A stretch of 64,000 nucleotides of DNA from Takakia lepidozioides (lineage: Eukaryota; Plantae; Bryophyta), in assembly GCA_030704615.1 (NCBI GenBank), contig CM060734.1, positions 63,054,001 to 63,118,000 of the forward strand, written 5' to 3'. The notes below the pieces were generated by a model that was not told the origin of the DNA, did no database searches, and saw only the letters and a list, made by a program, of their open reading frames with translations. The translations under genes were made by a program, and so were the position numbers. Shown here piece by piece: positions 1-31,369 of this stretch (the first letter of the stretch is position 1; each line of letters begins with the position of its first letter).

Positions 1-3000
1 AGAGACAGACATAAGTATTGGAATCTACCGACACTCCTCCTTGGTCCAAAATGTGCAGCACTTTTTTCAGTTTTCCTGCCTTACACAGGGTCCTTAAATC
101 CTTGTAAGTGTGAGACTTCCTGATGTTGACTCGCTCTATAACTACTCTGTGCAAAGGAGCCAGAATGGTGGATGTGCCTGATTCGACCAACTCTGCCTGA
201 TTCAAACCTGCCATCCTGCATGGTTTTGAAGTCATTATTATAAACCGTGACACATAACCTACGTGCTGCAAAAGAAGGATCCCCTTGTGACGATAGGCTC
301 CTTGTGACATTTAACAGGGCTTATTTCCTTTCCCCTTCCACATCAAAAAGTGCATAGTTCCAATGAAGTCACCGACTTAGACAGCAGCTGCAATACCTAT
401 ACTGTCCTTTCATGCATAATCTACCAAGAACATGTGACAGCTGTGTACACCTTCACACAGACAAAAAACTACCACATATAATATCTGCACACAACTTACC
501 TGTACGTACACTCAAAACACACAACTTTTCTGCTCCAAATCTGTCTAAATGATGGCGATTGACTATACCCTCAATGAAACAGACTGCTCCTTGGGGATTT
601 GCAATGGATAGCTCAGTGGCTCCCATCATTAATAAAACACTGAGCAGAAACCCCATGCATCAAACATAGAAAGATCTGGAATCTGTGATGCGTGGATTTA
701 GGAAAAGAGGAGGCTTTCATACTGGAAGCACTGCAAGAACCCCCTGGCACTTGCGCTCACCACAGACTTTTGCATAAATGCTTCCAGCTCCGCCAACTGA
801 TGTTTACCCACCCAAGTTTCTTAAAGGTATGACTCCACAGTGCCTTCTTGGTGCCCTTGTGCTTGAAATGTGATCCTCTGGGATTGGTCTGCACCTACAC
901 TCCATTTCCTCCCCACAAGTAGCTGACAATAACAACCCATGAGTTCACTAACAACCCTACCGGCAGTACACTAGTTCCTACTGTGTGACGGAGAGAGAGG
1001 AACGAAAGACAGAAGGTATGGGGTGTGGCTACTAAGTCATACACCTGCAGAACTAGTTCCTCTCAATACTGACCCCCAGTGTGGATTTGGAAGCTATCTA
1101 CACATTAGGGTGTGGGAGCAGAATTTGTCTTACTGCTGATTACAGGGACTGATCGGAACTAACTTGATGAGTGGGCTTGAAAATCTGTACTCACATTTAA
1201 ATGCCGTGGAGTTATGGCCACTCCCTACCAGTCAGGATTTGGGATGCTCTGTGGAAGTTCAAGACTTCAAGTTGCTCTTATGATGCCACAGATGTGCCAG
1301 TGAATATATCATGACAATGTGCGTGGAATGGAGTGTGGGAGGGTCTTTGGTACAAGTCAGCACTTCCTCCTGTGGGTTCAAGCAATACTGAGATTCCCTT
1401 CCGCATAACAGTGGGAACATCCACCCTCGGTATGAGAAGATGACTTGTGATGTACGAGTAGTGTAAAGTAGTGAACTCACATGCACAAGGAAAGATTGAA
1501 ATATCAGGGATAGTTTCATTGTTCAAGAAGTTCCACTTTCTGGTAACTGAGTGGAGAAATGACATGACCAGGGGCATGCTGAGGCTGCTGGATGGGTTGC
1601 TGCAACTACATCATCTGAAGAATGCCGAGAGAATGCCAAGGCTAGCATCCCCAATGACTTTTCTTGGTACAAGAGGTGAACTCATGCCTGAGCCATTCTA
1701 TGCTTAGTGCTGGACCTCCATGAAATCACCACTGAGACATAGAACTTTAATTTCCAATGTGTGTGTGCTCTTGGAAGCTTTCTTCTGAAGAGCGTGGAGT
1801 TGGAAGATTTCAAACAATACGAGGTGTTTAATCCACATCTTCCTGCAACCTTTTCTTATCTGGAGATTTCACCATTAGGCGTATTCTCTTGATAGCTGGA
1901 TGAAAGGTTTCCTTCGAGTTGACCAACTTGCAGATTCAACTAGATATGGCCCCAAGTTACTCTCGCCTGAAATAAGGAGGATGCCATGTGATAACCCTGG
2001 CCTGCTATTTGCCTGCTTCATCGGACACTCTCTTAAATAAGCACACAGTGGCCTGACACTGACAGGATGAGGGAAGAACTAGATGACCTTCAGGTGTGTT
2101 CCATTCACACATTTGGGCGTACCGCACATTTAAGCTTCATTTGATCTGTCAGCAAAGATATGTACCTTGCAGTTTGAGGGTCTGAAACAGAAAAGTTACT
2201 TCTTCCAGGGCTAGTTCCTCAATCAACATTCTTGGATCTTGTTCTATAGTGTTGATGCCAAAGCCTTGGTGGTGTTTCTCACAATCATGGAATATTTTGC
2301 CATAGATCTTTCTCAGTACAAGGTGGACAATATTATTGAACCTACAGGCTGAAATTTTCCATGTGAATGGGTATCCTTTTTGGCTCTTGTTTGGATCCTC
2401 GAACTTTCATGTAATCATGAATGCAAAGATTGAGATGGAAAGTGATTCGAACTGATACTGGATGCTCCATATGTTCTGCTGTTGTCAGTTATGTATATGT
2501 GAGCTTGCACATTGTGGGAAACATGAAGGCAGATTCATTCTTTCAGAGAAATGAGATGAATTGATACTTTATAATATCCATGGCAAGCTCAAATAGCTTA
2601 TGGGACAAGAGAAGCATGAAACGAGAAAGAGAGTGGGTCCTCAACCCAAAAGTAACTATTGATCAAGGGCTTGTCTCAGTGTCAAAGCTTCGTGCAGATA
2701 TGCTGCCTCCCAAGGCTCTTCTTCGAATGAGCACTCATCAAGGGACCCCTCCTGCGTTGTGTCTAGCTTAATGGTGAGTGATTGACTCCCTTTTTTTTTG
2801 TGTGAGTCAGTCAGAGCTCGTTGGAACCAGTCATCATGCGTGCTCTGCCCTTCTTTGATGCTTGTTCCATGACATAGCATATGCTGTGTTCCTGCCAATT
2901 CTTCACCATAGCAGTCACCCTCGCATACGTTGTCTTGTATACGAGGGCCTTCTTCTTCATCTGTTGTCACAATGCAGTTGATGACCACTGCTTCACTGCA

Positions 3001-4141
3001 CACTATTTTTGTTGTGATCTCAGTGACGTGCCTCGAACACTGCCCATCCTCATCCATGGGAAAGTGCAGCTCCCCTTGCTGATCATGTTGATGTGTGTGT
3101 GGCCTGTCTCCCTGCAGCACACTCAACTGGTCCTCCAACAGCCTGCAAAAGATAAGCCCCTTCTTCCTTCTCCTTTTTGCCCTGTTGTGCATCCTTCCTT
3201 TGTTAATGACATCTGTGATCCCCTCATGAAATGTGATGTTCTCAGGCTGATCCCAACCTGGCATATCCCATGCTCCCCTACTAACCTCATTCCCTTGGTT
3301 TGCCTTGTGATGTGCAGTGACCCCTCTTACACCATCATCACTTGGTCTCACTGCTGCCTCTGTCTGTCTGCACTTCTCGCTCAAGTTCCAGTACTTCCAA
3401 GCTGAGTTCCCTTGGCAACCCTTGCTGTGCAGTTACGTGCCTCATCTGTGCTTGCTCTTGTATCTGAGTATTTAACTCACGATTCTTGACTGGAAAATAC
3501 ACCCTCCACAACACACTCCCCTTGTGATGGAGTCTTTTGACTTACTGTTCTCTCCATGCTTCTGTGAGACCTCTCATTGGCAGCTATGGTCTGTATGGTG
3601 TCTATGAATTTTTCTTTAATCCACAAGACCAGTACTATGATGCAAATTAGAGCCCTCACTATGCCGTGAAATACCCATGCACTCCATGGTTTCTTTTCTC
3701 TCACTGTGATAGAGCTTTGACCCTGCACTGCATGATCTGTGCTCTCTTCCCTTTTTTTTTAACAGTGATAGGGTTTTGGCCCTGCCTGTCATGGTCTGTA
3801 CTCTCTTTTTTGCCCTCAACTGTAGCTACCTGTACTGGATCTAGCATGGCCTCATCCTCTCTCTTGTCAACGTCTATTTGATTGATCCCTGGGAAAAATT
3901 GAAACCTGACTTTCTGTTTAGAGGTTTTGTCACTCAGATTGGGTGCCTCCTTAGTGAAGTGGGAGTTGGTACGACGGCTGTTACTGCAGCAACAGTGGCA
4001 CTTAGTTCCCCTCAATGCCCTCTGAATGGATCCCCTTATTTTGCAAAAAGCCAAATACTTTCGTAATGTCTGTACCCCTCACTTTCCCACTGTGTGACCA
4101 CTTCAGAGGGTCCAGATTAGTGTCCACCCAAAACTTTCTTC

Positions 4142-4666
4142 TCAACAACTCTTTTCTGTAGTTCCGCAATGCCCAAACAAATACCCCATAGTGGACTCTT
4201 CAATTGATTGACCTTGTTTCTTTTGCAGAAGCTTCTCTATGCCTGAAACTACCTCTGTACCATCCTTTCCAGACTTGGTGAGTGTTGCAGACACTGTCAC
4301 ATCCTCCAATCCCAATGTTAAAACCCATAGTTCCTTGACTTGACTGTCGGGATTGACATTATGAACCTGGATCTTCCCTTTGGTCATGATTTCATACTCT
4401 TCTTCCCCACAAGATCCTCCCACTGGGTAGCGACTCAAAGCATCTACATTGCCATGTTTAGCTCCTTGGACAATTTTGAAATCATAATCCTGTAGCATCG
4501 TTATCCACCTACCTCTCCTTCCATAGGCGTCACTAACTGTGGCCAACCACTCTAGGGGTTTATGGTCGGTTCTTACCGTGAATGGTATACCATAGAGATT
4601 TTGTCGGAAGTGCAGGATGCCCCACACCAGTGCATAGCACTCGCCCTCCATGGGATGATATCTTTT
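4142..4666 (-). pseudogene. Ty3/Gypsy-type RNase H (pol fragment), truncated by the palindrome array
   Basis: KRYHPMEGECYALVWGILHFRQNLYGIPFTVRTDHKPLEWL...GRRGRWITMLQDYDFKIV..GAKHGNVDALSR matches the Gypsy RT-associated RNase H motifs. The upstream part is replaced by the repeat array at ~4667. Confidence 0.85.
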
Positions 4667-5520
4667 CAGCGCCGCCCTACCTGGCTGGATGGAAATTTGG
4701 CGCCGGATTTCCATCCACGCGATTTCGAATTACCTGCGTGAGGGAAATTTCCAGCGCCGCCCTACCTCCGCGGATGGAAATTCGGCGCCGAATTTCCATT
4801 CATCCGGTATTCGAATTACCTGCATGATGGAAATTCGGCACCGGATTACCTGCGTGAGGGAAATTCGGCGCGCCGCCCTACCTCCGCGGATGGAAATTCG
4901 GCGCCGGATTTCCATCCGCGCGCTTCCGAATTACCTGCGTGAGGGAAATTTCCAGCGCCGCCCTACCCGGCCGGATGGAAATTCGGCGCCAAATTTCCAT
5001 CCGCGCGATTCCGAATTACCTGCGTGAGGGAAATTTCCAGAGCCGCCCTACCTCCGCGGATGGAAATTCGGCGCCGGATTTCCATCCGCGCGCTTCCGAA
5101 TTACCTGCGTGAGGGAAATTTCCAGCGCCGCCCTACCTGGCTGGATGGAAATTCGGCGCCGGATTTCCATCCGCGCGATTCCGAATTACCTGCGTGAGGG
5201 AAATTTCCAGCGCCGCCCTACCTGGCTGGATGGAAATTCGTCGCCGGATTTCCATCCGCGCGCTTCCGAATTACCTGCGTGAGGGAAATTTCCAGCGCCG
5301 CCCTACCTGGCTGGATGGAAATTCGGCGCCGGATTTCCATCCGCGCGATTCCGAAATACCTGCGTGAGGGAAATTTCCAGCGCCGCCCTACCTCCGCAGA
5401 TGGAAATTCGGCGCCGGATATCCATCCTGCTGCGCTCCGAATTACCTGCAGGATGAAAATCCGGCGCCGGAATTCCATCGTGCAGCGCTCCGAATTACCT
5501 CTACGTTGGAAATTCCGGGA
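4667..5520. repeat. Tandem array of ~10 x 85-bp units, each with a ~30-bp palindrome GGATGGAAATTCGGCGCCG(A/G)ATTTCCATCC
   Basis: The unit start CAG(C/A)GCCGCCCTACC recurs at 4667, 4752, 4953, 5038, 5123, 5208, 5293 and 5378 (85-bp period). Units near 4800-4950 and 5460-5520 are irregular. Confidence 0.95.
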
Positions 5521-6437
5521 CTGTTTACGTCGATTTTCATCCGACATGGAGGGCTTCATCCGACATTTAATTGCGCAGTTGGGCAATAAATGTCGACCGC
5601 CGTCGGTTATTATTCGGGCTGGCGACGCATGGCTTCCTGGACACGTACCCTAAATCTCATGCTAATCTTGGCTTAACATGGTATTCCAGGCATGTACCCC
5701 AAAAAAGGAGATCTTTTTGGCTGGGACTTATGCCGCCTGAAGGGCGTGGCTCTCCTGAGAGAGACCTCACATCCAGACCGCGGCGGAAGTTGAAAGCTCT
5801 GTACTACGGACGACGGCCAATCTCTCGCATGGCCAAACTGAAGCTCCAGCAGGAGATTCCAGTGTCTTGCTCACAACCTGCGCCAACTGAAGCCGAGTAC
5901 TCTCAGGCAAGCCACTTCTGCTTTCGGTTTGTTCGATTTATTTTTTGCTTTCGCTTTGTTACCTCGCTTTGTTTTTGCATCTTCATCCTGGCTTTGCTGT
6001 ATGAGTGAACTTTAGATAGTTGAGTGAACCTTAGATTGTTTGCAATGCGTGTGCAAATCCGGCAGCTCTGGAGAAGGCTGCTTGTGCATGTCATTCTTAG
6101 ACAATGGTTGCATTTGTTTTCATTGTTGTTGCATGGCTCTCCATACTTCCTAAACTTTGTTATGTTTTCATTTTTGCTACATGATTGTTGCTATGGTGGT
6201 TGCGCTGCTCGTTGCGATGCTGCTTTTTGCACCGATGTTGGTTTTCACGATTTTTGTCAATGACAGAGTGACGACGAGCCCGGCACGTTGGTGGTATCAT
6301 CGACAGCTCCAACTCATCGCATGTTTCAATCGCCCAACTTGGGGCGAGAGGGCAAACTTAAACCTTTTGTTGGTGGACGGGAGGACTTGCAACGAGATTA
6401 CGACAGAGTAGGCATTGGGGAGGTTGGTGCAGGCGGC

Positions 6438-9400
6438 ATGGCAGGTGAAGGGCGTGAGGACATGAGGACAGCAGATCCGACAATGGAGGTTGTTCATGCA
6501 CATGCAGTAGGGCACGCCCACGCAAAGAAAAAGAAGAAAGCTAAGCACATGCAATCCCCGGCGAGAGAGCAGTCACGGGCTGCGGAGGGGGGAGTGAGCA
6601 GTGCGCGCGAGGGTGTCAGTTCGCCTCAATCAAAGGTGGTCGTCCTGGAGGGCTCCCCTGCTGCTAGCCCTAGTAAGAAACAGAAATCCCGTGAGAGGGC
6701 AAAAGAGAGGGCAAAAGAACAGACGAGACAGAATGCTAGCCAGGAGGAAAGACAAAAGGCAGCTGAAGAGGCCAGGGGTGCCCAAATGACAGATGCCAAT
6801 GTAAGCGAGGGACACACAGAGACGGTGGATCCCTCCAAGACACCACAGAGAGGCAGTAACACACCGGTTAGACCATCGCGGGCAAGAGCAGCCCCCGCAA
6901 TTACCCATACGGTGGAGAGTGGAGGAGAGGAAAGAACACCTGAAAGAGCACGGATTGTGCAAGTTCGAGGTGAAGCCAGGGAGAGGGCAGTAGAGACGAC
7001 GAGAGTGCTGGAGGTGGTTTCGCAGGTGGCTGACCCTGTTGAGGAGGACGACATGGAGGTTTCTGACCAGGATGACATCCTCCCGGACATCCCCAGGCCC
7101 CAAACCCGGAGCATACAGGCTGGATTTGGCGGTCCTGGTGGGCTGCCGGAAAACCCCTCTGTAGCAGACGTCATGTCTGAGGCGGATATGAAGTTGGCCG
7201 CTGCCAAGATGTTGGAGGCAACCCACAGCAACATTGGTAGGGTGCTGGGGGGCATGGTGTACCCGGCCAAGCTTCGAATTCCCCTTTGCCGCTTGGTGTC
7301 ATTGCAGGTGGTGAGACCTGCCCTCCCAAGCGATATCGACAAGCTGAAATTCTCTTTCCAGGATGGATATCGAATGGGGTCTGCCGCGTTTTACGTTTAC
7401 ATTGAGAACGACCACGGAGCTTCCCGTGCCCACACTTCCGATGAGGTGGACAAATGGGTCCCCATTGGCAAACGCGAAATGAGGAGTTCGAGAGATCGAT
7501 TGCTAGTGATCCTCTTTTCCAGCACATGTCCGGTAAGATGTTCTACGTGTGGGACGGCAATCATCGCCTCATGGCATGGATGGAGCACATTGCCCAAGCC
7601 CACCCCAACGATCTCGATTGGCATTTCGCCGTCGATTGTGTTGTGCTGAAGGTTGCGGGGCCCAAAGATCGCAGTCTTCTCAAAGCTGCAATGGCCGACA
7701 TCAACTCGTAAGCTACAACCCCTCTCGCTTTTGGACTTTGAATTTGGAAGTCATTTCATTGCGAATCCTCATATATGATGAAAATTCCCATTTCAGTATT
7801 GTTTGATGGAAATGTGGCACTGCAGGGTGACTGAGAATGCCTTCATTGCCACCAACTTGTCCCATATGCTCTTCGAGTGAAGGATGTCGGGAAGCAGGGG
7901 GTGCAAGAGTTTGCCAATTCCCTCAGTGCCGACCTCCTGCGCAAGTCGGAGGCAAAGGCAGACAGAACCTGGTATAGGCTGAGCGTCGACGCCATGGTGG
8001 ACTACATATTTCAGGTAAAGCTCCTGACAATTTTGTTGAGCTAATCTGTCTCTCCTCCCCAATAGAAGAAATTGTGTTGAGCAGGATCTCTAATCTTATG
8101 TGTGCATTCTTGACAGACGAAAATACAGCAAGATTTGGCACATGCGCGGAGGTTCTACATGGAGTCAGAGGAGAAGAATCCAACCCTCCCGGAACTCGAA
8201 TCGTATGTCAAAGCTGCGGAGGTGAGGGCCCGCATAAAGTACAAGTCGCGGATGGTAAAGTACGTGGCCATAGCTGATCCCGCCCTTGGTGCCGACTTTC
8301 TGGTGGAGGTGGGGAAGCACTACTCTCGCGCTCTGAAGCCCACGATGACATTGGAGAAGCTCCATCGTCTAGCCACATCCTGTGTGGATGCAACAGAAAG
8401 GTGATACATTCTTAACAAAATTGTGGTGGCAACAACTCCTTTTTGTGGTGTTTGGCGCTTACGAATATGCTGGGTGGTTGGACAGACCCGGTGGCTCCAA
8501 ATCTGGAATGGTTCCCAAAGTACCAGGGACATGTGGAGCTTCCCCAAACCGGACAAACTCTCTGACCCCACATTCGACATGTGGATGAACCGCATGACAT
8601 GGTGGTTTCAGGTACTTCCCCACGCTTCGTTTGGGGCTTCTACTCTAGTAGGGGGTGGATTCATTGTATTTTTTGAGGAAAGCGATCTGATGGAGAATCT
8701 CCACAGGTGACGACGAATGCGCAAGAGCAGCTGGACACACAAGCACATCAGTTCAAGATGGAGATATCTCCTGCAGCAGAGAGCCTACGTGACTATGTGA
8801 CGAGGTACTTTCTGCTCTACAAAACCAACCTATTCTTTCGGGAGATAGCAGATGCTCGCCGGAGCCACGAGATCACCGACCAGCCGAACGCGGACAAAGC
8901 AGCAATGCGCCTTCTGTACAGGTACATACGCGCTGCCTTTCTTTCAAGTCCTGGCATTTCAGGATGTTAGAGGCCTCAAGTGGTGTTAGGGAAAATGGCG
9001 CCGAATTTCCAGTCAGGGCTCCAAAAATGGCTAAGTCCCTAGACTGGCTGGCCCGGAACTGGAAATTCGGCGCCATTTTCCAGTTCCAGGCCCTATTGCC
9101 GTCCAGGGACTTAGCCATTTTCGGTCTAAGTCCCTAGACTGGCTGGCCCTGAAGTGGAAATTCGGCGCCATATTCCAGTTTTAGGCCCTATTGCCGTCCA
9201 GGGACTTAGCCATTTTCTTGCTAAGTCCCTAGACTGGCTGGCCCTGAACTGGAAATTCGGCGCCATTTTCCAGTTCCAGGCCGTATAGCCGTCCAGGGAC
9301 TTAGCCATTTTCGGTCTAAGTCCCTAGACTGGCTGGCCCTGAAGTGGAAATTCGGCGCCATATTCCAGTTTTAGGCCCTATTGCCGTTCAGGGACTTAGC

Positions 9401-11930
9401 CATTTTCGGGCTAAGTCCCTAGACTGGGTGGCCCTGAACTGGAAATTCGGCGCCATTTTCCAGTTCCAGGCCGTATTGCCGTTCAGGGACTTAGCCATTT
9501 TCGGGCTAAGTCCCTAGACTGGGTGGCCCTGAACTGGAAATTCGGCGCCATATTCCAGTTGTAGGCCCTATTGCCGTTCAGGGACTTAGCCATTTTCGGA
9601 CCTCATTGTGTTTTTCATGAATGCAGGTACTGTAAGTTCTCCCTTTTGGAGAAAGGTCATCTGTCTTTCGAGCCACCATTCTTCCTGGCATGGAGGAACC
9701 CTGGGGCTGACTCCATGTACACTGACGATATTGTGAAGGAGTGGCATCTGGAACATTTGCGTGATTGCCCTTGGTATGTGGACCTTCCGCCCGGCTCGCT
9801 CGACCCATCCGAGTTTCAATTGAAGCTGGATGCTGAATTCCGACGAAACCGGGCTCCGCTGCCTCCGTTGGGTGCAAAAGAGGCAAAAGCGCCTGCGAAC
9901 TCCAGGAAAGCGGCAGAGCTTGCTCAGGCAGGAATTCAGGAGAAATTGCATGAGAAGAGTAAAGGTCAAAGGAAAAGGACAAGGAAACAGGTCACTGCAG
10001 TAACACCCAAAAAGAAGAAAACCATCGGGGCATCGGAGGAGGCGCAGGAGGGGACCCAAGAGAGTGACTCCGACGCCGATTTTGTTGAAGGTCCTGCGAC
10101 TGCTGTTGCTCCTACCCAGTCACCGGTCGTCGGGTTCCCAAGTCAATTCGGAGTGGGACTGGCTCTGCCAAAAGTTGGCATTTGAGGGCGAGCCTACACG
10201 CCGGTATTCGGCGGTGACGTTTACGCACAGGCCAAAGCTAGAACCTCCAACCATCATCCAATGCGTCAATGAGAGCTTCCTTGACGCTCTCGCTGCCAGG
10301 GCGAAGAAGGTGGCACACAACAAGTCTCTGGCGGAGCAGAAGGGGAAAGCCACGAAGAGGGCTGGCGGTACAGAGCCTAAAGACACCCCTGGTTTTGAAG
10401 CCATGATGGAATTCTTCACGGCTGTGAGCACGAATTGCAAGAGCACTCGGGGGGGGTTGAGGTGGAGAGAGCTTGCGACATGATTCTCCTCGACATTCCA
10501 GATGGGGAGCTGCTGGAGGGCCTGGATGGTGTGCCCACCTGGAACAGGTTTACTGAGGACTACTGGAAAGCCGGGTTTGTGCTGGCGGGGATGCTTCTGG
10601 ATGACGGTGGATGTGTGGTTGTCCTTGCCACGAGAGGGAAGACCACAGAGAATGCGGTGGCAAGGTGGACACCCAAAAGTGTCACCCCGGTCCTCCTCAG
10701 AAAATGGTTCTGCATCAGTACGCAGGGGTTGCAAACAGAGGCCAAAGTGTAAGTTATCAATCTATTGCATTCACTTCATATTGTGGGTGTATGTTAAGTA
10801 GACCCTGGAATTGATCCCTTCTTTGTTGGATGTGCAGACATTGGTGTTTGAGGCATATTGCTTTGTGAAGAGAGGGTCTACGTTCAAATTCCGCAACGAC
10901 GGTCGTCTTGTTGATGCCGCTGTGGACCCTGTAACCTACGAGGTCCTCTACAACTATGTGCCCCACTCTAGTATGCCGAAGGACACAAAGACAGGCAAAC
11001 CGTGGCGGTACAGCCGGACCCGGAGCCCTGCTTTCATCCAAACCCTCATGGAGACGTGCTCGGATGTCCAAGGGCGGATTTTGGACCTCACATGCGGCAC
11101 GGGTAAGCCTTCACGTGCTCAGTTGTCCCCTGGCCCGATTGCAATTGCATGCCGCAAGCTATTAACCGCCCGCTTTGTTCCTCAGGTGCTTCAATGTGGG
11201 CAGGGACGTTGTCCGACAGGCATGTGTTCGCCTTCGAGCCAGATACTGCCCTCCACAACTCGGAACTTGCAGCGGCTGAACGTCTGCCGAAAGAGGAAGA
11301 GGCATCCCTGGAGGATGAGGAAAATCCGAGAAGGAGCAGGGGGAGGAAGTTGGGATCGAGGCCGAGGAGCCCCCGGTTTACGAGTGAGTGGTGGCATTGT
11401 AAGTTGCCTCCAGATTTTGTGAGGCACCTCCCTCCGCTCTCTTATTTCATTGAAAACCCTTTCTGGTTGTGCTGTATTGACATTCTTGAAGTGGATTTGT
11501 TCTTACTGTAGGATGCCAAGTACTGCCGGAGGACGTCTACACCGGAGTTCATGGGCAGGAGGAACGTGCCTTTTTTTGCCAGGGGGGATTTCATGCCTAG
11601 TCCAGAAAGGGAGTACATCCTTCCTACTTATGCTGCCCGGCTTGCTTCGGTGTCCATTAGGAGGTGTTCCGAACGTAGTCGTGTTTATAGCAGATTTTAG
11701 ACGAGGCAAGCCTCAAGAAAATGAAGATGAGGGAGGAGGCAGCAGCTATTAGAGCCCGTCGGGCTCGTAGATTTGTGTTGGATTCTGCTGAGGAAAGTGG
11801 GGGAGAAGACGCAGAAGATTCCCAGGAGGTGAGGTGGACAGTCCCCCAAGGAGAGGACGGGATTTTTGAGAGGCATAATGGAACTGATGCATCACAGAGC
11901 TCGGAGGATGAGGGGGATGAGGGGGGATGA
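6438..11930 (+). CDS. Multi-exon gene with several single-base frameshifts: disordered NLS-bearing N-terminus, ParB/Srx-like domain, helical middle region, beta-class N4C/N6A DNA methyltransferase-like domain
   Basis: Approximate exons: 6438-7707, 7826-8014, 8117-8400, 8486-8611, 8707-8921, 9627-10746, 10838-11102, 11186-11383 and an uncertain last exon 11512-11930, with GT..AG boundaries, several phase-consistent. ParB-like segment: IPLCRLVSLQVVRPALPSDIDKLKFSFQDGY...FYVWDGNHRLMAW (7278-7580). MTase motif IV-like: CDMILLDIPDG (DIPDG at 10492-10506) followed by LLDDGGCVVV. Motifs X/I/II: RSPAFIQTLMETCSDVQGRILDLTCGT|GASMWAGTLSDRHVFAFEPD, split by intron 11103-11185. Start codon uncertain. Confidence 0.75.
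9031..9600. repeat. Intronic tandem array of 6 x 95-bp hairpin-forming units with alternating A/B variants
   Basis: CTAAGTCCCT starts at 9031, 9126, 9221, 9316, 9411 and 9506. Each unit reads CTAAGTCCCT...AACTGGAAATTCGGCGCCA(T/A)TTTCCAGTT-like core...AGGGACTTAG. The array lies in intron 8922-9626. Confidence 0.95.
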
Positions 11931-12528
11931 GGAAGAAGGTGGGGCAAGTTCCTCGGAGGGTGTAGGAGAGTAGTGCCCATTCCGGCTATGACAGTTAGAA
12001 CACACTTGTATAGACGTGGCTTGTCACAAAATTTGCAATAAAATGTTGCATTTCAAGTCCACTGGTGCCACATTCCAACTTCACATGACCCTATTTCCGT
12101 GCCTCCTAACCCTATTTCCGTGGACTCACAATGGTCTGCTCATGCTTTTTTTTTTTCCGCTCATGCTCATGCCGCTCATGAAATAGCAGCCCCCGGATTT
12201 TTGAGAGGCATAGTGGAACTGATGCATCACAGAGCTCCGAGGACGAGGGGGATGAGGGGGATGAGGAAGAAGGTGGGGCAAGTTCCTCGGAGGGTGTAGG
12301 AGAGTAGTGCCCATTCCGGCTATGACAGTTAGAACACACTTGTATAGACGTGGCTTGCCACAAAATTTGCAATAAAATGTTGCATTTCAAGTCCACTGGT
12401 GCCACATTCCAACTTCACATGACCCTATTTCCGTGCCTCCTAACCCTATTTCCGTGGACTCACAATGGTCTGCTCATGCTTTTTTTTTTTCCGCTCATGC
12501 TCATGCCGCTCATGAAATAGCAGCCCCC
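11860..12528. repeat. Tandem duplication (~335 bp) of the element's right terminus
   Basis: 11860-12194 and 12195-12528 are near-identical and both end in GAAATAGCAGCCCCC. Confidence 0.92.
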
Positions 12529-13539
12529 TGATAAGCTGAGTTGGGTGTTTCCTAGAACAAATGTAGGTTGTCATTGTCAGCTACTAGCAGCAAGGCAAGG
12601 ATGAATGCATGATTTGTGCAGGGGCATGGATAGCTGAAGGAGCAGGGATAGAGTGTGGTCCAGATTCATCCTAGAGGGCCAAATTTCAAGCACAAGATTT
12701 ATCTATGATTCCCTGTGGATCAATAACTACAAGAAACCTCCATGGGTAGATGGTCTATTCCGTGGAACTCGTTGAAGTCTTGCATTATGAGGATCAGAAC
12801 TGCTTGACTTGCACGAGGCCTGACCCTTAGGCAATCCCCAGAGCAGCAGTAGCTTTTGGGCTGCTTTTTTACTTTGTGTTTTTCATTTTGTCCCATAAGC
12901 TCTTTGAGCTTTCCGCAGATGTAATAAAGTACCATTTTGTTTCATTTCATTCATTTTCATTTCATTTTGTTTCATGGCATGTCTTTCATCGTTTGTGCAT
13001 TTCTAATGCATGATTAGTTCTCTTGTATGGCATTACTAGTCGACTCACTACAAACACAAAACTCCAAAGCATGAATCACTATGAACGATTGTTCAAGTAA
13101 TTTCGAGCACTTCATGTAAAGTAGTAAAGCAGTGGTTGCGCCAACTTCCGCAGTCGCAATTGCCACTGGGCATGTAGCACTGCAAGTTATGTGGTCTACT
13201 ACCACGTGGCAACAGTGGTGCTCGTCGTGGCGCCGCCACGTTGGCATCCACATCGTCATCCACATCCGCGTCCATGTGTCACCGCGCTTCAGTGAGTCGG
13301 TCCACTCATCCGGGTCAAAGTCGCCAAATTGGTTACTTCAGCATTAATCGCATTAATCGCTGAGCAGTTGTTTGCGCGTCTGCGTCCTTTACCACTCCAA
13401 TCATTGGATGTCCAACCCAACTACCACGTCTGTTGTAACTAGTCTGTTGTAACTTCCAGTCGATCCCAGTTTTTTGACTTTTACGACTCAAAATGAGTCG
13501 TTACCCCAGTGGTAAATGACATGAATGCTTCTAGTGGAT

Positions 13540-13890
13540 GTCTCTCAAACAATCTCACTAAGGCTCCTAATCCTTGCACAAATGGGACTCCAAAATAGTA
13601 CACCAAGGCCCCAAGAGTCTGCCAAAATTTGGCCCTCGAGGACCCCAAATAGTCCCTCACACAATTCAATAAAGACTCCTCAAGCTCACCAAATATTGGC
13701 CTCCAAGGACCCCAAATAACTCCAAATAGTCCTCCAAATGGTCCTCCAAGGACTCCCAATAGTCCTCCAAAAGGTCCTCCGAGGACCCCAAACAGTCCTC
13801 CAAAGACTCCCAATAGTCCTCCAAATGATACTCCAAGGGCCCTCAAATATCTTCCAAACAATCCTGCAAAGGCCCTTAAAGATCACTAAG
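13540..13890. repeat. Degenerate short-period CTCCAA-rich tandem repeat
   Basis: Repeated (G/T)CCTCCAAA / GACTCCCAATAGT motifs, which generate the spurious Gly/Leu-rich ORF 13481-13861. Confidence 0.6.
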
Positions 13891-13904
13891 TCCTTTCAAT
13901 GTTG

Positions 13905-14210
13905 ATACCTTAGCAGAGGTATAGTCTGAGGTTGCTAGGGTCCCTTATATTGATGATACCTTTACAGAGGTATAGTATGAGAATGAGGGTTCTGTTTGGT
14001 ATACTAACAGAGGTATAGTCTGAGCTGATTAGGGTTCACATATGGTAATACCTCAACAGGGGTATAGTAAAAAGGACGAGCTCATGTTTGGTATACTAAC
14101 AGAGGTATAGTCTGAGCTGATTAGGGTTCACATATGGTGATACCTCAGTAGAGGTATAGTAAAATAGACAAGCTCCTGTTTGGTATACTAACAAAGGTAT
14201 AGTCTGAGCA
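13905..14210. repeat. ~92-bp tandem repeat built from two subunits, each with an ATAC..GTAT inverted motif
   Basis: A(G/A)AGGTATAGTCTGAG at 13915, 14009, 14101 and 14193. The intervening subunit is e.g. ATACCTCAGTAGAGGTAT. Confidence 0.8.
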
Positions 14211-15491
14211 TACACTACTAGGGTTTGTAATGAAAAGCTAGAATGCAAGCTTCCTTGACTTCTATGCTTCTACTCAAGCAAAAATATGGTCTCTAGGTGG
14301 TCATAAGAGGCATCTTCTTGCTCTCTTCCACCCCAATGTGCAACCAATAGTGGTTCAACTCAACTTGCAATCATTGGCCACCAAATCAATCCCCCTTCTA
14401 GTCCTTGGGATTTGATTGCAAACTACCATATCTCCATTGCCGAGCATTCATGCATTTGTCTCCTTATCACTTGCCAATTGCTCCAAATCAATATAAATTA
14501 TCTCAATGTGTAGGAGCAATGCTTGTCACTTACAATATGCTCCCAAGCAATCCACCTTGGATCCCACTCTCACGCCATATGCCTCCTTTGGGGTCTTGCA
14601 CTAATCCATCATCCAAGTGCTCTCCTTGGTCATTGAATGCATGTTCCATGACCTCTTGGCCTATGTGTTGCTCTCCTTCATTGTAACATGAATCAACACA
14701 TATCTACTTCACACACAAATGGATCTCAAGGCTTTCACCTCTTGCTAGTTCAAGAGCTCCTCTTCTCAAACTTGAACTTACAAACTCAAGAGAGCATGCT
14801 CTACACATGCATCACTTGCTTGGTCAACTATCCACCACAAAGCTCACACTACCAAGAGCATGAATAGCCAAGTATTGCCTCCCCCTCTTGTCACATTACA
14901 TAGTTAGGGTGAAGCTATGCATACATTGAATGATGATTTCCCTTCAAGGATTTCCCACCATATGTTCTCCAAGCCGTTCCAATGGCACCCTAAGCTTGGC
15001 TCTACACCACCATGATTGGAAGATTTCTTCACATGCTCCCTTTCAAAACCTCTTGAGCTTCTTAGTGCTCTCCAAGTGCTTGCCCTTGTTGTCTTCAAGC
15101 CCAATCCTATGTAGCTCCTTGGCTTCTTTTCCACAACATCCATGACACATTGAACTTGCTTTAACCTTAGTTTGATAGTGAAATTAGCTCTAACAAGTCT
15201 TTAGTCACTCTCCACAAGCCATGGTGCACACCATCGACTCCATAATGCATACAAAGGATTCTCAAACCCTAGAATCCATGCTTCCACACTCACAAGACTT
15301 CCTCCTTGCAAGCCTTGCAAAATCTTGTGACTCAAGAGCTTTCTTCTCAAGCTCTCCAACTCATTGGTGCATGCAACACTTGAGCACCTTTCCTTGCAAC
15401 CCCTTGTAAGTCTTGTGATACAAGAGCTAAATTCTCTTAGCTCTCAACCTCTTTAACATATAAGTGCAAAACTAATCCTTACACTCCACAC

Positions 15492-16222
15492 TCACAAGCA
15501 TAAGGTGATCTTCTTGTAGTGATAAGAGATGGGAAATGAGAGAAGTGAAAGACAATGAAAAATGACAAAGAAAGCCATTTTATGACAGCTAGATGTATCT
15601 TCATTAGTGTTTTTCCTCATTAGCTCTTCTTGTAATAGATGTGTAATTAATATTTGTAATGTTATATTAGACATACAACGCAAAGAAACAACAAGTCCTT
15701 GATAGCTTTTGGGTAGACTGCGCATTAGTGCCAATGTACTGTCTTCATCAGTAACTATTGATCAAGCACCTGCAAATTGTTCAAATCTTAAGACTGATAA
15801 TATGATCAGATATATTACCATCTTCACTCATTTTCAATGTTGCTAGCCTATCTTTAAGATACATCTTAGTTATGACATCTTTTGACTCATATAGTCGAGT
15901 CAACTCTGTCCACGATTCTGTGGCAGTGTTACAATTGCTAATGTGTAATACTTGTGAATTTTCTTAAACATGCAGTTAGCATATTTAACGCATCTATATT
16001 TCTTTGATCCCAATCTATTTTACTGCATGTTCCCGTGGCTGGAAGAGGAGTTTGACTAGATGAGGATGATGAGGCAATTGGAGTTACTGGACGTCTTTCA
16101 CTACCGTCGACAATTCTCCAAACCTTTTCTTTTTTGAGCAACAGAGATATTCTATGCTTCCAGACATGAAAGTTAGACCCATCAAACTTTTCTATATTTG
16201 CACTGAAGGTTGATGTGGACAT
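15492..16222 (-). pseudogene. gag: Ty1/Copia gag fragment
   Basis: IEKFDGSNFHVWKHRISLLL (Copia gag N-terminus) and LMRSLPKSYQGLVVSL (UBN2-type gag motif). Frameshifted. Confidence 0.85.
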
Positions 16223-16257
16223 CTCTTTCTCTTTCTCTTTTTCTTTCTAACTACCAA

Positions 16258-16500
16258 GGCTCTAATACCATGTACAAAAACAAGAGATCTACATTTCTAC
16301 AGTCAATAGAAGACAATATAGAGTATAATAAGAGAGATTGTATTAAATTACATTTTTTGTGTCTTTTTATACATGCTAGAAAGTTGTGTCTCTTGACACC
16401 ACAACCGATTCTATTTTAGTAGTCACACCTATTCCCTATAGTTGTGACCTTTCATTGTTGAGTTGTGACTCTTGAAATGTCCTTTCGTATATTGGGTGAA
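16258..16500 (-). mobile_element. Copia PBS (tRNA-iMet) and truncated 5' LTR
   Basis: Minus-strand TGGTATTAGAGCC (16270-16258) abuts the LTR end ...TGTACA (16271). 16271-16490 is nearly identical to the reverse complement of 58980-59198. Confidence 0.8.
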
Positions 16501-17892
16501 AGCATGCTAATAGGACCCAAAAAGGATGTCACAATTTGTTTTTCAGCGCAGATGGCGCATTTGATCCAAATCTATGACATCGAGTTCAGCATGAAACCAC
16601 ACAAATCTTATATCATTGGAAAGCCCTTCAAGTGCTTGTTATGCCCATATATTATTCTTTTTTATTTGACAAGTTTAAGGGGTCCTAAAGTAGTCATGAA
16701 TAGCACAAGGTCCAGATGTCTCAAATTGTTGTAGTCCTTTAGGACTCAATTTGCACACCATAGCATGTGAGGGTCCTCTCGGGATTTTTCATGTGCTTAT
16801 GTAAGGTGTGGAAGTATGGAAAAAGGATAGTAGACCTGGAAAACCAGAAAAGCCCATTCTCATAGGAATTTGCTCCTTTGCGGTATGCATAAGTTAGGGG
16901 CACCAAACTTTACTACTAATAAACCTAAAAATTTGGGCATAGTTCTTCACCAAAAGGGTTTAGCTGCTGAAAAGGGAGGAGGCCATGTTCTTGAAATGGC
17001 TACAAGATCCTTTAATTTTGAATTACAGGCCCAAAGGAGTTCTCACAAATGAGATATCCTTCATTGGAAATTCTTTTAAAATAGTCAATATATGAGATAA
17101 TCTCAAAAAAATTACATGAGCATCTGCAGCATTGAAGTAGGCATTGAACAAACCAAACCCGGCCTAGAAGCAATCAGGGGAAAGAAAATGGCGACAAATG
17201 GAAGTCGAGGTAGTATTGTAAGCTCAAAAATGGAGAAGTGCGAGACAGTGTGAAACCGGATGAAAAATGTTTCACATAGATGAAAGGATTGGATGTGGTT
17301 AGTTGAGGGCAGCGTAATACGAAAACGGCGTTGGTGGCGCGATAATTTCTTCTGACATTGCGGGGAGTGCGTACGAGGAGGAGGAGAGACGAAGTGATCG
17401 ATGGTGGCATTCTTGATTATGGCTGTCTGCGCAGTTTAAGGTCTCAGGAAGAAGCATAGACATGGCTCATGGTTTTTGAGCGCCGTGGTGATCGTTCTTC
17501 ATTCGAAGGCGTCTTAAGGGTGGTTCCTCATTATCTTGACATGCATGAGCAGTAGAAATTGAGGTGAGCTTGATGCTGGCCTTTGTGCGGCAGTCAGATG
17601 CGAATGGATTAGTGGGCCCAATTTGAGGAGCTATTTTTGCTTGCTGCACTACGTGGGTAGATGGTCAACTGGAAACAGCAACGGCAGCAGCGCAATTCAT
17701 AGAATAAGGCACTTCCAATGAAGGTTCATTCTTCAACACATTTCAGCCTGTTTTTGCCTTGCATAATATTAGAGAATGGCAGAGCAAAGTAAAAGGGAAA
17801 CAAAGAAAAGATATTGCTAGAGCCAAGAGCATTGTTTGTAGTGTGGCAGTTTCCAGCCACACTGAGAATGTAAGATTGACTCCGAAGGTCCT

Positions 17893-18396
17893 TGTCGCGC
17901 GGCTTTTACTCACCCATCCCTTCGCTATCCGAGGCGGAAACTCCAAGATAGAAGAGTTGGAAATCTCTAAGTACTCAGCCCGTGCAGAACAATCAGTCAT
18001 GACCTACAGCTAGTGTATCATGGGGGTGTTTCCTATTTGTTTCCCGGGCTGTGACTGGCTGTGTGGCTGTGCCGGGCTGTGTCGGCTGTGTCGGCTGTGT
18101 CTGCTGTGACGACTATGTTGGCTGTGTCGACTGTGACTGCTGTGGCGACTGTGACGGCTGTGTTGGCTGTGTCGACTGTGACGACTGTGACGGGCTGTGT
18201 TGGCTGTGTCGACTGTGACGACTGTGACGGGCTGTGTTGGCTGAGTTGGCTGTGACGACTGTGACGGGCTGTGTAACCCCCCTCTATAGTGCGCTGCTGT
18301 CACCCCTAAGGCTCCTGTTGGTCTCAGTCTGTGCAAAAATTAAGGGTACCCTACAGATCCCGTATAAGTGTCTAAGTCCCCTACAGTCCTCTAACA
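17893..18396 (-). repeat. 3' LTR of E1 (internally deleted)
   Basis: TGTCGCGCGG...CCTCTAACA matches the E2 LTRs but lacks the central ~450 bp. The adjacent PPT is the reverse complement of TTACCCCTTCCCCCCTC. Confidence 0.9.
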
Positions 18397-18434
18397 TTAC
18401 CCCTTCCCCCCTCAAAAAGCCGTGTCCTCACGGT

Positions 18435-21400: not shown

Positions 21401-21915
21401 CAGACACCATGATAGGAGACTTTGCGGTAGTACCTTGTAATCTTTTCATCTCCTCTACCAGTGCGTTGTACATTATGTCCGCCCATTGTACCTCTTGTCC
21501 CTTCAGGCCTTTGAGTATTTCCTCTGTGAAGGATCTGCTCAAATACTGTTGGTTCTGTTTCAGGGCAATCAGAACGTTCAATACCTGGCCTATCTCTTTT
21601 AACCCTGGGTACACAGCTTTGGTACAAGCATAACCCTGAGTTTTAAAGAAACTCCCTTCTTGGAATAAGTCCCCTATTTGCAGTCTTGCCCTGTGTTCCT
21701 CCACATGAACCCGACCTGCTGGCAATCGAAACAATTGCTGGAGGTATAGGGGAGTAATCATTAATTCAACTCCTTTCACCGTTGTTGTTCCTGTCCTTGG
21801 CTCAAAGTTCTGCAAAAATTGTAACATGTACTGTCTATGGTGTAGTGTCCAATCTAGGCTTTGCAATCCTTCCAATCTCAGCCCTCCAGTATCTTATCGC
21901 CTGTGGGGTAGCCAT
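18435..21915 (-). CDS. Gypsy 3' extra ORF (frameshifted): plant-transposon accessory-like N-terminal domain plus long coiled coil
   Basis: ORF pieces 21270-21875, 20956-21333, 20204-20896, 19008-20207, 18706-19011 and 18435-18662 are collinear with copies in E2 and E3. FLQNF..TTVKGVELMITP..LQQLFRLP...VQWADIMYNAL resembles Athila-type/Transposase_32-like accessory proteins (inference). Confidence 0.65.
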
Positions 21916-22575: not shown

Positions 22576-22679
22576 TTTTAAAGTAATTTCCGTTTCCTCT
22601 TCCGTCAGCCATTTTACTGAAGTTATTATGTGTCCACTTGTCACTGATTCTATGGATCGTGTAACTTTAGTAGGCTGTT

Positions 22680-22880
22680 TTGAGCTGTGACAGGCTGTGT
22701 CATACTGTGTTACGTTGTGATAGGCTGTGATGCACTGTGGTAAGCTCTGATAGGCTGTGACACGCTGCGGTAGGTTGTGATAGGCTGTGTTGCGCCGTGC
22801 TGGGCTGTGATAGGCTGTGTCACGTCGTGATGGGCTGTGATAGGCTGTGTTGCGCCTTGCTGGGCTGTGATAGGCTGTGT
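22680..22880. repeat. GTGATAGGCTGTG tandem repeat (30-bp period) downstream of integrase
   Basis: GGGCTGTGATAGGCTGTGT recurs at 30-bp spacing. Related tracts lie at 35610-35770 and 46840-46955. Confidence 0.8.
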
Positions 22881-25607: not shown

Positions 25608-27281
25608 GGGGGCTGCTATTTCATGAGCCATGAGCCATGAGCGGCATGAGCCATGAGCAGAGTCGTAAGTGTGGAAAAAAACATGAGCAGCACTATTTTC
25701 CGGAAATGAGTGTCCGCGGGAATAGGGTTTAGGGTGCCACGGTCATAGGGGGAGAAGGACCTCCCGATGAAGGAGGTTCGGCAATGTTATTTAGAATTAT
25801 ATATTGAAAGGCAATGTTTCGCGAATGGTAGGGTGGTATTGCTCTGTACAATGGGGGCCCATTTCAGCCTACCAGCCATTTGCAAAATTCACCCACACTC
25901 CCAATCCCAAACGAAATGAGCAATGACGCATTCTCGGAACAATGGACACAGAATAGAATAAAAAGAGGGCACAATGAGGTTTTTATTGATCCACATGAAT
26001 TGCATTTGAAGCACGTCTACTGTGCTGATTGTGCCCTCAAATCTTGAGCCCTGTGCCTACTGAATACAAGTCACGTTGTCAATGGGACTTCGACTGCTCT
26101 CAGAACTAGCTCATGAGTCCTGGGGCTCCTCCATGTAAAGTCGATTGCAGCCGTTGTACCGCCCCTAGTGATGTTCACCACAATGTCCTGCCCTTCAATC
26201 ATACCACCATCGAATATGGAAATCTTCACGTTTTCGTCGTCCACACCAATGCGAATGTCCCCATACAATGGAGAAGAGGAGCGCACTCCTCGAGGAGAAT
26301 AGGTCTCTCCGATTGAGTCCACCCACGTCCAGTGGCAGCAGTTCCACCGCAACAGCATAGCAGTGCGCCTTCTTCTGCATGGGTGACCGTCGTAGCTGGG
26401 AAAATCGGAATCGAGGATGCGCAGGAGCCACGGACTCCTCAAACCAAGATCGTCACCCCGCTCGAAGGCGTAGTGGCCTACGATATACTCAAAAGCCACC
26501 AATGTTTCCACAATCGAACCAGTATCTTCTGTGTAATCTGTGTACCAGATAACAATGTCTCCCGATGTGGCCGAATACATTGCATAATCGATGCCTCCAA
26601 AGGGGCAGTCGTCCCGGTTCCGGAAGCACGGCATCCTTGCAAAGGAGGACCTGAGGACGACTTGGATGCCGATGACCTTGCGGACAGCTACGAAGCCCTT
26701 AGATTTTGGAAAAGATACGAAGCGGAAGAGCAGTCCGGCCTCCAAAATGGAGCATCTGGGTCACACGTACCCACCGACGGAGGTGGAACGTGTTCATCAC
26801 GCCAGCGGTGGATGAAGCCATACATCTTTCTCATCAACAAGTTATAGTTTGAGATCTGCCACCGAAATCCATCCCCCCGGATGGAAATTCGGCGCCGCAT
26901 TTACATCGAAGAGGGGATGGACTTCGTCGTGTCCAGTGGCTATCGGCCCACCTGGCAGTGAGTGCCCATAGTTTGCATGGCAGGGTAGGAAACTGAAACG
27001 GCTACATTCATGCAGCAGCCAATCTTCATCGGTCCAGGATCCTGTAGGGGGGAAATTTAAATGTGCCCTGGAGTGTGCCCTGGAATGTACCTCACTTCTG
27101 TATGACTGTGTTTCATTGTGTTGAATAACTCTCGGATTTGGCCCACTGTTTACAATTTGATGTCTCATTTCTACAATTTGTCTGTCTGGTTGAATAAAGC
27201 AGAGTAACCGGTATGTGAGTCATGTGTCAAGAATATACCAGAGTAACGCCATGTCGGACATTGAAATGCGGCACCGCATTT
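25608..27281 (-). mobile_element. Second, divergent member of the palindrome-bearing element family, inserted in the E1 RT; other end hidden in the gap
   Basis: Begins GGGGGCTGCTATTTCATGAG exactly where intact E2 reads ...TGGTAC^TGACC (38477-38487). CATGAG subterminal repeats. Palindrome cores at ~26878-26908 and 27263-27281. Confidence 0.7.
26071..26745 (-). CDS. Hypothetical ORF inside the second element (no recognisable domain)
   Basis: 224-aa open frame in a CpG-rich segment. Overlapping ORFs in other frames make the true frame uncertain. Confidence 0.25.
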   Translation of the reverse strand: MEAGLLFRFVSFPKSKGFVAVRKVIGIQVVLRSSFARMPCFRNRDDCPFGGIDYAMYSATSGDIVIWYTDYTEDTGSIVETLVAFEYIVGHYAFERGDDLGLRSPWLLRILDSDFPSYDGHPCRRRRTAMLLRWNCCHWTWVDSIGETYSPRGVRSSSPLYGDIRIGVDDENVKISIFDGGMIEGQDIVVNITRGGTTAAIDFTWRSPRTHELVLRAVEVPLTT

Positions 27282-31339: not shown

Positions 31340-31369
31340 TTACCCCTTCCCCCCTCAAAAGCCGTGTCC

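Follow-up and report, generated by a model that had tools for sequence, protein, structure and literature searches.

A repeated mobile element of Takakia lepidozioides with tandem GGCGCC dyads and a gene for a predicted ParB-like, methyltransferase-like protein

The closest described counterparts of the locus analysed here come from plant transposons, bacterial mobile elements and phages. VANDAL transposons of Arabidopsis, which are non-TIR Mutator-like elements, encode VANC proteins whose targets are tandem repeats in introns and upstream regions, according to PMC5735166. The present element resembles them in joining an element-encoded protein to tandem short motifs that are upstream or intronic and family-specific. 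Unlike them, it encodes predicted ParB/Srx and amino-methyltransferase (MTase) folds instead of DUF1985/DUF287, its motifs are long palindromes, and no transposase gene was found; neither DUF1985/DUF287 nor the VANA transposase had a Pfam match in the window exons or the full-length homologs. With TnpA of Spm/CACTA, as described in bioRxiv 10.64898/2026.08.24.746577, it shares a single accessory gene, the product of which would be trans-acting and bind dense clusters of family-specific motifs, whereas TnpA is transposase-derived and binds termini, and the dyads here are internal and distinct from the terminal repeats.

Bacterial ParB, Noc and KorB, together with BisD of ICEclc, a ParB-like clamp that activates its own mobile element (10.1101/2024.09.16.613209), have in common with this system a predicted ParB-type N-terminal fold, GxxR and clustered palindromes, and BisD and KorB are likewise encoded on mobile elements. 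In contrast to them, the protein considered here is eukaryotic, encoded by a spliced gene and about 1200 aa or more in length, with a long middle region and an MTase fold; no ParA was found among 59 ORFs or fragments of the window or 109 ORFs of homologous loci (a 5'-truncated copy in the window, decayed sequence in the loci), and sulfiredoxin and SerK match the fold as closely as bacterial ParB does. ParB-linked MTases occur in phages (PMC4738411); such phage loci, the eukaryotic N6A/N4C MTase clades of the same source and Marchantia DN4MT1, with the catalytic motif TSPPY (10.1101/2021.02.12.428880), have the permuted amino-MTase fold in common with the present protein (PF01555, phage MTase PHROGs). 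The latter has DxPxG/N rather than TSPPY or DPPY, is multi-copy and mobile, and lies outside the clades described in the available part of PMC4738411. The E2F-motif DNA transposons of Brassicaceae (reviewed in PMC7329337) also amplify a GGCG-type core, yet those are mostly MITEs with an E2F consensus, while here long dyads are found in a gene-bearing element. Overall, the locus can be considered a VANC/TnpA-like layout with a prokaryote-derived protein. No description of the family was found in a literature search that left most subscription journals outside its scope, and a listing in the supplement of PMC4738411 is possible.

The window, i.e., the whole stretch of 64,000 nt of Takakia lepidozioides DNA that was analysed, contains the following features.

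4663..5500, no strand: array 1, about nine units of 85 bp plus partial units, upstream of the gene, left end cut
5742..5906, + strand: putative first coding exon, an open frame with a putative start codon and an inferred GC donor
6267..7707, + strand: exon 2, beginning with a long N-terminus of low complexity and continuing into the ParB/Srx-like domain (about 7275-7707)
7826-8014, 8117-8611 and 8707 to about 8953, + strand: exons 3-5, conserved middle region
8990..9599, no strand: array 2, intronic, an inverted partial unit and six 95-bp foldback units
9627..10749, + strand: exon 6, in which the middle region ends and a charged linker leads into the start of the MTase fold, with several frameshifts
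10838-11102 and 11186 to about 11385, + strand: exons 7-8, SAM-binding motif I, then a strand ending in Glu
11512..11950, + strand: putative last exons, acidic and basic tail, inferred from open frames and splice-like sites
11860..12528, + strand: 3' end, where the last 334 bp are duplicated in tandem (98%), with subterminal GCTCATG repeats and a terminus ending AGCAGCCCCC at 12528
25608..27281, - strand: second element, 3' terminus at 25608, ORF 26077-26760, dyad 26883-26904 and variant dyad 27263-27281 running into an N gap

The ParB-like and MTase-like gene lies between and around the two arrays. Array 1 was called by TRF at 4841-5449 (85-bp unit, 7.2 copies, 92% matches), with irregular units extending it to about 4663-5500, and array 2 at 9029-9599 (95-bp unit, 6.0 copies, 92% matches). 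Every unit of array 1 has a dyad of 22-36 bp centred on GGCGCC, a long, near-perfect palindrome with arms of up to 15-18 bp, and every unit of array 2 has one GGCGCC dyad, asymmetric by one base, the entire 95-bp unit being a foldback (both of the two units folded, z -8.0 and -6.4). Alternate units of array 2 have variants in common. The core GGAAATTCGGCGCC has 31 matches in the window at up to two mismatches, as against a shuffle mean of 0.15 and a maximum of 1, and all 31 fall within 4691-5476, 8997-9549 or 26883-26904. The two arrays with a shared dyad core described by the sequence-only reading are thus real, and the unrelated flanks that it noted are borne out by self-BLAST, which listed no match of at least 60 bp between the arrays, and by unit alignments, which differ outside the dyad. 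Some of its details have to be corrected: the site at 8990-9013, regarded as isolated, is the inverted partial unit heading array 2 in the same intron; 27263-27281, counted as a core site, is a variant dyad, AAATGCGGCACCGCATTT, cut by the N gap and outside the 31 matches; and 4667, where its interval starts, is not the element's end but the point at which a truncated copy joins a Gypsy RNase H region, the junction being bridged in an independent run by a low-depth contig. The dyad was also found in other flanking contexts among public contigs of T. lepidozioides. As Rfam returned hairpin matches only, far below gathering scores, a known RNA or ribozyme was rejected.

The arrays and the gene together make up one high-copy repeated mobile element, copy number and linkage being read from public contigs and the depth of sequencing runs. 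In run X1 all bins between 4601 and 12727 have a depth of 7.5-24 thousand, as against 0 in 4300-4600. The arrays accompany the gene through its many copies, a result that does not refute the earlier interpretation. The window copy is truncated at its 5' end and its reading frame is broken by frameshifts, including those near 7455 in exon 2 and near 7873 and 8396 in exons 3-5; the frame is kept in other copies, where the breaks of exons 3-5 are absent, and a spliced contig of the element exists among public contigs. Exons 3-5 were assigned by homology to full-length relatives and homologous loci, the end of exon 5 being approximate. An RNA-like contig spans 5767-5999 in the first exon region, and both introns around exons 7-8 are skipped in contig 29 of run X8. 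None of the 12 window gene fragments had a Pfam match.

The 3' end is fixed at 12528 by an empty-site paralog near 53826, and the approximately halved depth over the 334-bp duplication in run X1 suggests that the duplication is particular to this copy. The CpG observed/expected ratio is 0.66 in 14 element windows versus 0.35 in 107 others; the hAT ORF of the window, at 0.70, is just as high. The element is likely a DNA transposon. Its one known end, AGCAGCCCCC, does not read as a CACTA end, the 5' end being missing in the window copy. From a single known terminus and two empty sites, whose target sites have no common sequence, it was assigned to none of Helitron, Harbinger, Mutator or Penelope-like elements, and no transposase was recognisable in the available part of this 5'-truncated copy.

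The second element sits inside a Gypsy RT gene, with an empty site at 38482. It has its 3' terminus in common with the first element (alignment score 60 versus a shuffle maximum of 28), as well as one dyad and a 10-mer located at 5540..5549 (+) just past array 1 and at 27258 (minus) just past the second element's dyad. Its visible ORF resembles neither ParB nor MTase, and no homolog or family was found for it. The earlier view that the core occurs within two members of one family therefore holds for terminus and dyad, but the visible gene of the second element differs.

The N-terminal domain of the encoded protein is predicted to adopt a ParB/Srx fold with a GxxR pocket motif. The fold was modelled on homolog P0009 (pLDDT 90.3), which is 39% identical to the window exon; all eight VIA hits of this model at Z of at least 5 belong to the ParB/Srx superfamily, the best being KorB (Z 7.6, rmsd 2.7, 92 aligned), and all listed Foldseek rows are ParB/Srx members (best E 4.2e-3, none at E<=0.001). 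An earlier model from 9 sequences (pLDDT 48.5) gave no structural match. The fold hits leave ParB, sulfiredoxin, SerK and SbnI unseparated, the best Z being below 8. Among 86 homologs, the residues of the motif DGNHRxxA are mostly kept (G in 78, N in 85, H in 80, R in 73 and A in 77), and GxxR is intact in the window as part of WDGNHR at 7550-7567. In a model built without the middle region, the helices after the ParB-like domain align loosely to Noc, KorB and Spo0J (rmsd 11-13 Å); no HTH had a Pfam match in the window exons or full-length homologs. PDB sequence searches returned nothing relevant.

The C-terminal domain is a permuted amino-methyltransferase fold, likely inactive. Homolog P0159 matches PF01555 at E 5e-5 (23.7 bits, under the cut-off of 26.7) and phage DNA MTase PHROGs at E 9e-7, and the motif order in the window is permuted as in P0159, motif IV DIPDG (10492-10506) preceding motif I ILDLTCGTG, which is split by the intron between exons 7 and 8; the MTase exon alone as query found no homolog. 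The catalytic consensus of amino-MTases is (D/N/S)PP(Y/F). Here the motif reads D-[ILVMF]-P-x-[GN] in all nine sequences, with the first Pro in none and an aromatic residue in one. The ParB-MTase protein proposed earlier thus stands as to the predicted ParB-type fold, the nucleotide-pocket motif and the MTase fold, but its catalytic motif is degenerate, and the proposed marking by methylation is weakened since this motif is DxPxG rather than (D/N/S)PP(Y/F).

The named relatives of the protein are from a liverwort and ferns, among them homologs of Riccia and Adiantum, for example R1sor_027256; viral contigs and prokaryotic genomes yielded no relatives, the phage MTase matches being weak (best among those listed, E 0.01). 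A feature search with homolog P0003 listed DUF3723 clusters third (0.95), a lead only. When gene homologs were checked for arrays of their own, which likewise did not refute the interpretation, clustered dyads were found beside the gene in 10 of 17 distinct homologous loci, distant loci carrying them upstream and in introns. Motif B, of 22 bp, has the central TTCGGCGCCGAA as in the window dyad, which is of the same length, and differs in the outer 5 bp. It has 17 matches in 110,901 bp of 21 loci versus 0 in 5 shuffles, the dyad motifs having been read from the same loci in which they were then counted; the matches are confined to 4 distinct loci, where they either precede the ParB match by 334-1556 bp or belong to 51-bp arrays within introns, and the distal flanks have none. 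This clade has the same 12-bp core with other arms, placed upstream and in another intron than in the window; as the intronic arrays of the window and of L002/L004 are in different introns, they arose separately. In L018 a 1.4-kb array with a decayed form of the core lies directly upstream of the gene, and a third clade has a different dyad, without GGCGCC, in 5 distinct loci (shuffle maximum 0). Motif type tracks protein clade (supports 0.98 and 0.99), as common ancestry by itself would lead one to expect. The core is the same in elements whose proteins are only 34-42% identical, the long dyad arms (up to 15-18 bp) are lineage-specific, and across lineages sharing the amplified core a short coding patch is all of the element DNA that can be aligned.

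That the arrays are neutral minisatellites, expanded from a palindromic seed and passed on by descent, is very improbable. Palindromes do promote local duplication, and some homologous loci have no arrays: a dyad cluster is absent from 7 of the 17 distinct loci, most of them with little upstream DNA, among others from L011, which spans most of the gene, and L007, with 2.4 kb upstream. Against it, the same core was amplified in 85-, 95-, 51- and approximately 85-bp units of unrelated sequence, at different positions and in distant lineages. It is unlikely, too, that the gene is cargo and that dyads and foldback units act as signals of DNA structure or transposition, be it as hairpins, cruciforms or internal sites for a partner's transposase. 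The folding of the whole 95-bp unit, the terminus and dyad common to elements with different cargo, and the lack of a recognisable transposase in the available part, so that the element would need a partner, are consistent with this; a purely structural role, however, needs no identical 12-bp core in distant lineages, and the terminus has its own, different GCTCATG repeats, terminal repeats being the usual place of transposase sites. A CACTA transposase (Tnp2) gene about 4 kb upstream of the homolog in L003/L004 also speaks for this reading, but homology of L004 to its sister loci ends at 9060, about 3.3 kb from the Tnp2 gene, and no such gene is present at any other distinct locus; with the gene beyond the shared homology and near one of 17 distinct loci, the CACTA linkage was set aside.

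The dyad arrays are likely docking sites, and their partner is probably, as far as sequence comparison can indicate, the element's own ParB-fold protein, a host factor such as E2F being a real rival. According to this rival, which was absent from the interpretation of the sequence-only reading and which we consider somewhat unlikely, the amplified dyads would serve as binding sites of a conserved host factor, likeliest one of the E2F family, expression or transposition would be tied to dividing cells, and the ParB-MTase would do something else. According to PMC4686757, GGCGCC is the site of E2F homodimers, and E2F8 favours A/T runs beside the core; nine window half-sites have three A/T abutting GGCGCC, including all seven in array 2, while in 16 half-sites a C separates the core from the A/T run. 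Amplification of E2F motifs by plant DNA transposons is known (PMC7329337, on Henaff 2014), the invariant part across lineages is exactly the GGCGCC core, whose conservation between such divergent proteins suits a host factor equally well, and in the second element the dyad stands in front of another gene. However, the window has one occurrence each of the E2F/DP motif preferred in vivo and of the older canonical one, both outside the elements, the symmetry reaches 30-36 bp with lineage-specific arms, and the dyad of one clade has no GGCGCC.

Binding of the GGCGCC dyads by the element's ParB-fold protein as a dimer, with the promoter region kept active in the manner of VANC or TnpA, is possible and tentatively preferred. 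The ParB-like domain may bind nucleotide, gating loading at or spreading from the arrays; the MTase domain, with the SAM motif intact and the catalytic motif degenerate, may serve mainly as a DNA-binding or base-reading module and not as a writer; tandem amplification, by raising site density, would raise occupancy; and elements with other cargo, e.g., that at 25608-27281, may use the same sites in trans. Shielding of the element, as originally suggested, is weakened, as the dyads of relatives are heavily C-to-T decayed, which speaks against lasting protection, and C>T/G>A at CG sites is the commonest change class in array 1 (13 of 54 changes). It is doubtful, indeed quite unlikely, that a bacterial-style nucleotide-gated ParB clamp with an amino-MTase fold loads at parS-like arrays, slides, and marks the DNA (4mC/6mA) or masks it from CG methylation, elements with other cargo borrowing this via the same sites.

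If the protein binds the dyads, seed-free plants would possess a transposon self-regulation of their own beside VANC and TnpA, assembled from prokaryotic parts, and several lineages would offer natural protein-site pairs for cross-testing. A ParB clamp sliding on chromatin, if true, would be new for eukaryotes, would make the spread of anti-silencing from short motifs directly testable and might provide a targeting tool. If E2F binds instead, the capture of cell-cycle sites by transposons reaches far beyond Brassicaceae. On either reading, the family accounts for a class of multi-copy genes left unannotated in the genomes of liverworts and ferns.

The two arrays of palindromic sites described in the sequence-only reading, one of 85-bp units upstream of the ParB-MTase-like gene and one of 95-bp units in an intron, are real and linked to that gene. 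TRF matched both at 92% (7.2 and 6.0 copies, respectively), and a scan of the window gave 31 matches to the common GGCGCC-centred core at two mismatches or fewer, against 0.15 expected, all 31 confined to the arrays or to 26883-26904. The features are:

4841-5449, array 1, 85-bp units
8990-9013, partial unit in inverted orientation, heading array 2
9029-9599, array 2, 95-bp units
26077-26760, minus strand, ORF of about 200-230 aa, CpG ratio 0.86
27263-27281, variant dyad, interrupted by an N gap

The segment 8990-9013, initially taken for an isolated site, thus belongs to array 2, and at 27263-27281 a dyad is indeed present, in a variant form truncated by the gap. In array 1 the dyads form almost perfect palindromes, their arms measuring up to 15-18 bp; in array 2 one side of the dyad is a base shorter, and each 95-bp unit folds back on itself (z -8.0 and -6.4 for the two units folded). 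That the dyads have a structural role or are transposase sites is rather unlikely.

In contigs of the public sequencing run X1, depth is 0 at 4300-4600 and 7.5-24 thousand in every bin of 4601-12727; runs X3 and X6 have a matching step. Contig depth is not copy number, and the joint rise indicates that arrays and gene belong together. An empty-site paralog near 53826 places the 3' end at 12528. On its left the element abuts a Gypsy RNase H frame; an X6 contig of depth 2 spans this junction, and upstream of it other copies run on into sequence absent from the window, so the window copy is 5'-truncated. The dyad also occurs in several different flanking contexts in these contigs, some of them alike and perhaps representing the 5' regions of subfamilies. 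At 11860-12528 the final 334 bp of the element, terminus included, are exactly duplicated in tandem, at about half depth in X1, so the duplication is probably peculiar to the window copy or arose by an assembly error. A joint of 9124 to 12034 in X3 fuses array 2 straight to the 3' terminal region, suggesting internally deleted derivatives that retain arrays and terminus. At 4300-13300, C-G transversions relative to the family are unusually frequent in X1 (53 of 228 listed places). The repeat hosting the insertion (12529-12755 and 53800-54400) has very high depth in X8, a run guessed to be RNA.

The surroundings are a nest of plant-type transposons with Gypsy gag, RT, RNase H and integrase fragments. 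Two Gypsy copies (18088-25607 and 31038-42578) are 95% identical, and both carry GCTGTG-type repeat tracts of 9-10 bp and, downstream of integrase, several kb of extra ORFs lacking Pfam matches. No dyad lies near either the hAT transposase fragment (50161-51060) or the CACTA Tnp2-like fragment (55928-56242).

The gene comprises about ten exons, from near 5742 to near 11950; in the window copy single bases are missing at several places. Every X6 contig that covers 7455, 7873, 8396 or 10171 has an extra base at that position, so the family frame is open there and the window copy is decayed or mis-assembled. X8 contig 29, by the same guess RNA, skips two predicted introns, which points to transcription and splicing of relatives. 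A profile of 18 homologs matched the window read-through (X at breaks) over residues 390-1170 (E 1e-78). The domain search returned 843 proteins at E<=0.001; the named homologs (8 of 10 proteins looked up) are from the liverwort Riccia sorocarpa and the ferns Adiantum nelumboides and A. capillus-veneris, which makes a seed-free plant the probable host.

The predicted structure of homolog P0009 (pLDDT 90.3, from 86 sequences) has VIA matches of Z>=5 to ParB/Srx members in eight of eight cases, including KorB (7.6), PadC (7.2), SerK (6.8) and sulfiredoxin (6.7); Foldseek ranked Noc, sulfiredoxin and ParB-CDP highest, none reaching E<=0.001. A GxxR motif, an upstream Arg (57/65) and a downstream Asn (76/83) are conserved, supporting a nucleotide pocket. 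A CTP clamp does not follow, since the fold is equally near superfamily enzymes; Pfam gave no HTH match in the homologs searched. Of the claimed ParB protein there remain the predicted ParB/Srx fold and GxxR, and a sliding ParB clamp marking or masking its own transposon in a plant would be an improbable reading. Language-model look-alikes of homolog P0003 include fungal DUF3723 proteins, which we take to be Starship cargo; a wider family of mobile ParB-like proteins is possible.

For the methyltransferase part, another homolog, full-length P0159 (1207 aa), matched phage DNA MTase families at E 9e-7 and PF01555 at E 5e-5, the latter with a score short of the curated threshold. The motif order is that of the beta class and the SAM motif is present; motif IV reads D-x-P-x-G/N in all nine sequences, with an aromatic residue in one, which makes methyl transfer doubtful. 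Given the conserved Asp and SAM motif, an atypical activity is possible.

Among 21 homologous loci from metagenome contigs (17 distinct; GC 29-45%, more AT-rich), exon order is common to those of sufficient length, and the window dyad occurs in none. One clade (L002, L003/4, L008 and L017; protein support 0.98) has a 22-bp dyad with central TTCGGCGCCGAA as in the window and different arms, deduced from C-to-T decayed copies, one a single transition off. Its 17 matches (0 in 5 shuffles) all lie 334-1556 bp upstream of the ParB match or in 51-bp intronic arrays, which occupy another intron than array 2; the distal flanks, 5-9 kb in length, have none. Immediately upstream in L018 is an array of 1.4 kb with a decayed core (3 matches when the threshold was relaxed; of its 14 anchored repeats some lack the core). 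In a further clade (support 0.99), five distinct loci carry a different type of dyad. Dyad clusters thus accompany the gene in 10 of the 17 distinct loci; the other seven have upstream DNA of <25 bp (two), 510-963 bp (four) or 2.4 kb (L007), and L011 has no dyad within the gene. Because the motifs derive from the loci counted and kin inherit both motif and protein, the comparison shows that a layout recurs and does not prove co-evolution. That the dyads are neutral satellite is very unlikely. In L002 (5200-6100), L017 (1-650) and L008 (1-520), upstream of the gene, the GGCGCC dyad alternates with a second type, which has a GAGCT core and resembles the dyad of the other clade. Upstream of the homolog in L004 lies a degenerate CACTA transposase gene accompanied by palindromic repeats of its own (1600-5750 and 6470-6554); the homolog itself is interrupted by a copia element with 314-bp LTRs (10949-16821).

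Binding by a host factor, most plausibly of the E2F family, is an unlikely yet serious alternative: GGCGCC is the E2F-homodimer site (PMC4686757), E2F motifs are amplified by plant DNA transposons (PMC7329337), and an A/T run directly abuts the core in 7/7 array 2 sites. However, the elements lack the preferred E2F/DP motif, a C intervenes in 16 half-sites, and one clade's dyad lacks GGCGCC.

The second element (25608-27281) shares with the first the last 39 bp, one dyad and a 10-mer just past it; its visible ORF is unrelated to the ParB-MTase-like gene, with no match in Pfam, PHROG or NCBIfam and no sequence homolog. Shared terminus and dyad with a different ORF indicate a cis layout common to elements with different cargo.

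For CpG, the observed/expected ratio in 14 element windows is 0.66, vs 0.35 in 107 others (p 2e-5, the windows being non-independent), 1.42 in array 1 and 0.70 in the hAT ORF. In array 1, 13/54 changes are C>T or G>A at CG sites, and the dyads of relatives show heavy decay. If the elements are shielded at all, the shielding would be partial or restricted to active phases.

The element is not a VANDAL and is at most a putative ParABS system; unlike amino-MTases such as Marchantia DN4MT1 (10.1101/2021.02.12.428880), its protein fails the catalytic-motif test. A review of eukaryotic N6A MTases mentions phage ParB-linked MTases and, in the parts covered, gives no account of the present family (PMC4738411); our literature search, with most subscription journals outside its scope, found no published description of it. 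The working proposed here would be like that of VANC (PMC5735166) and TnpA (10.64898/2026.08.24.746577), and the mechanism like that of BisD (10.1101/2024.09.16.613209). We tentatively suggest that the element's own protein would dock on the dyads as a putative dimer and, so bound, would keep cognate elements active, the MTase fold acting as a reader.
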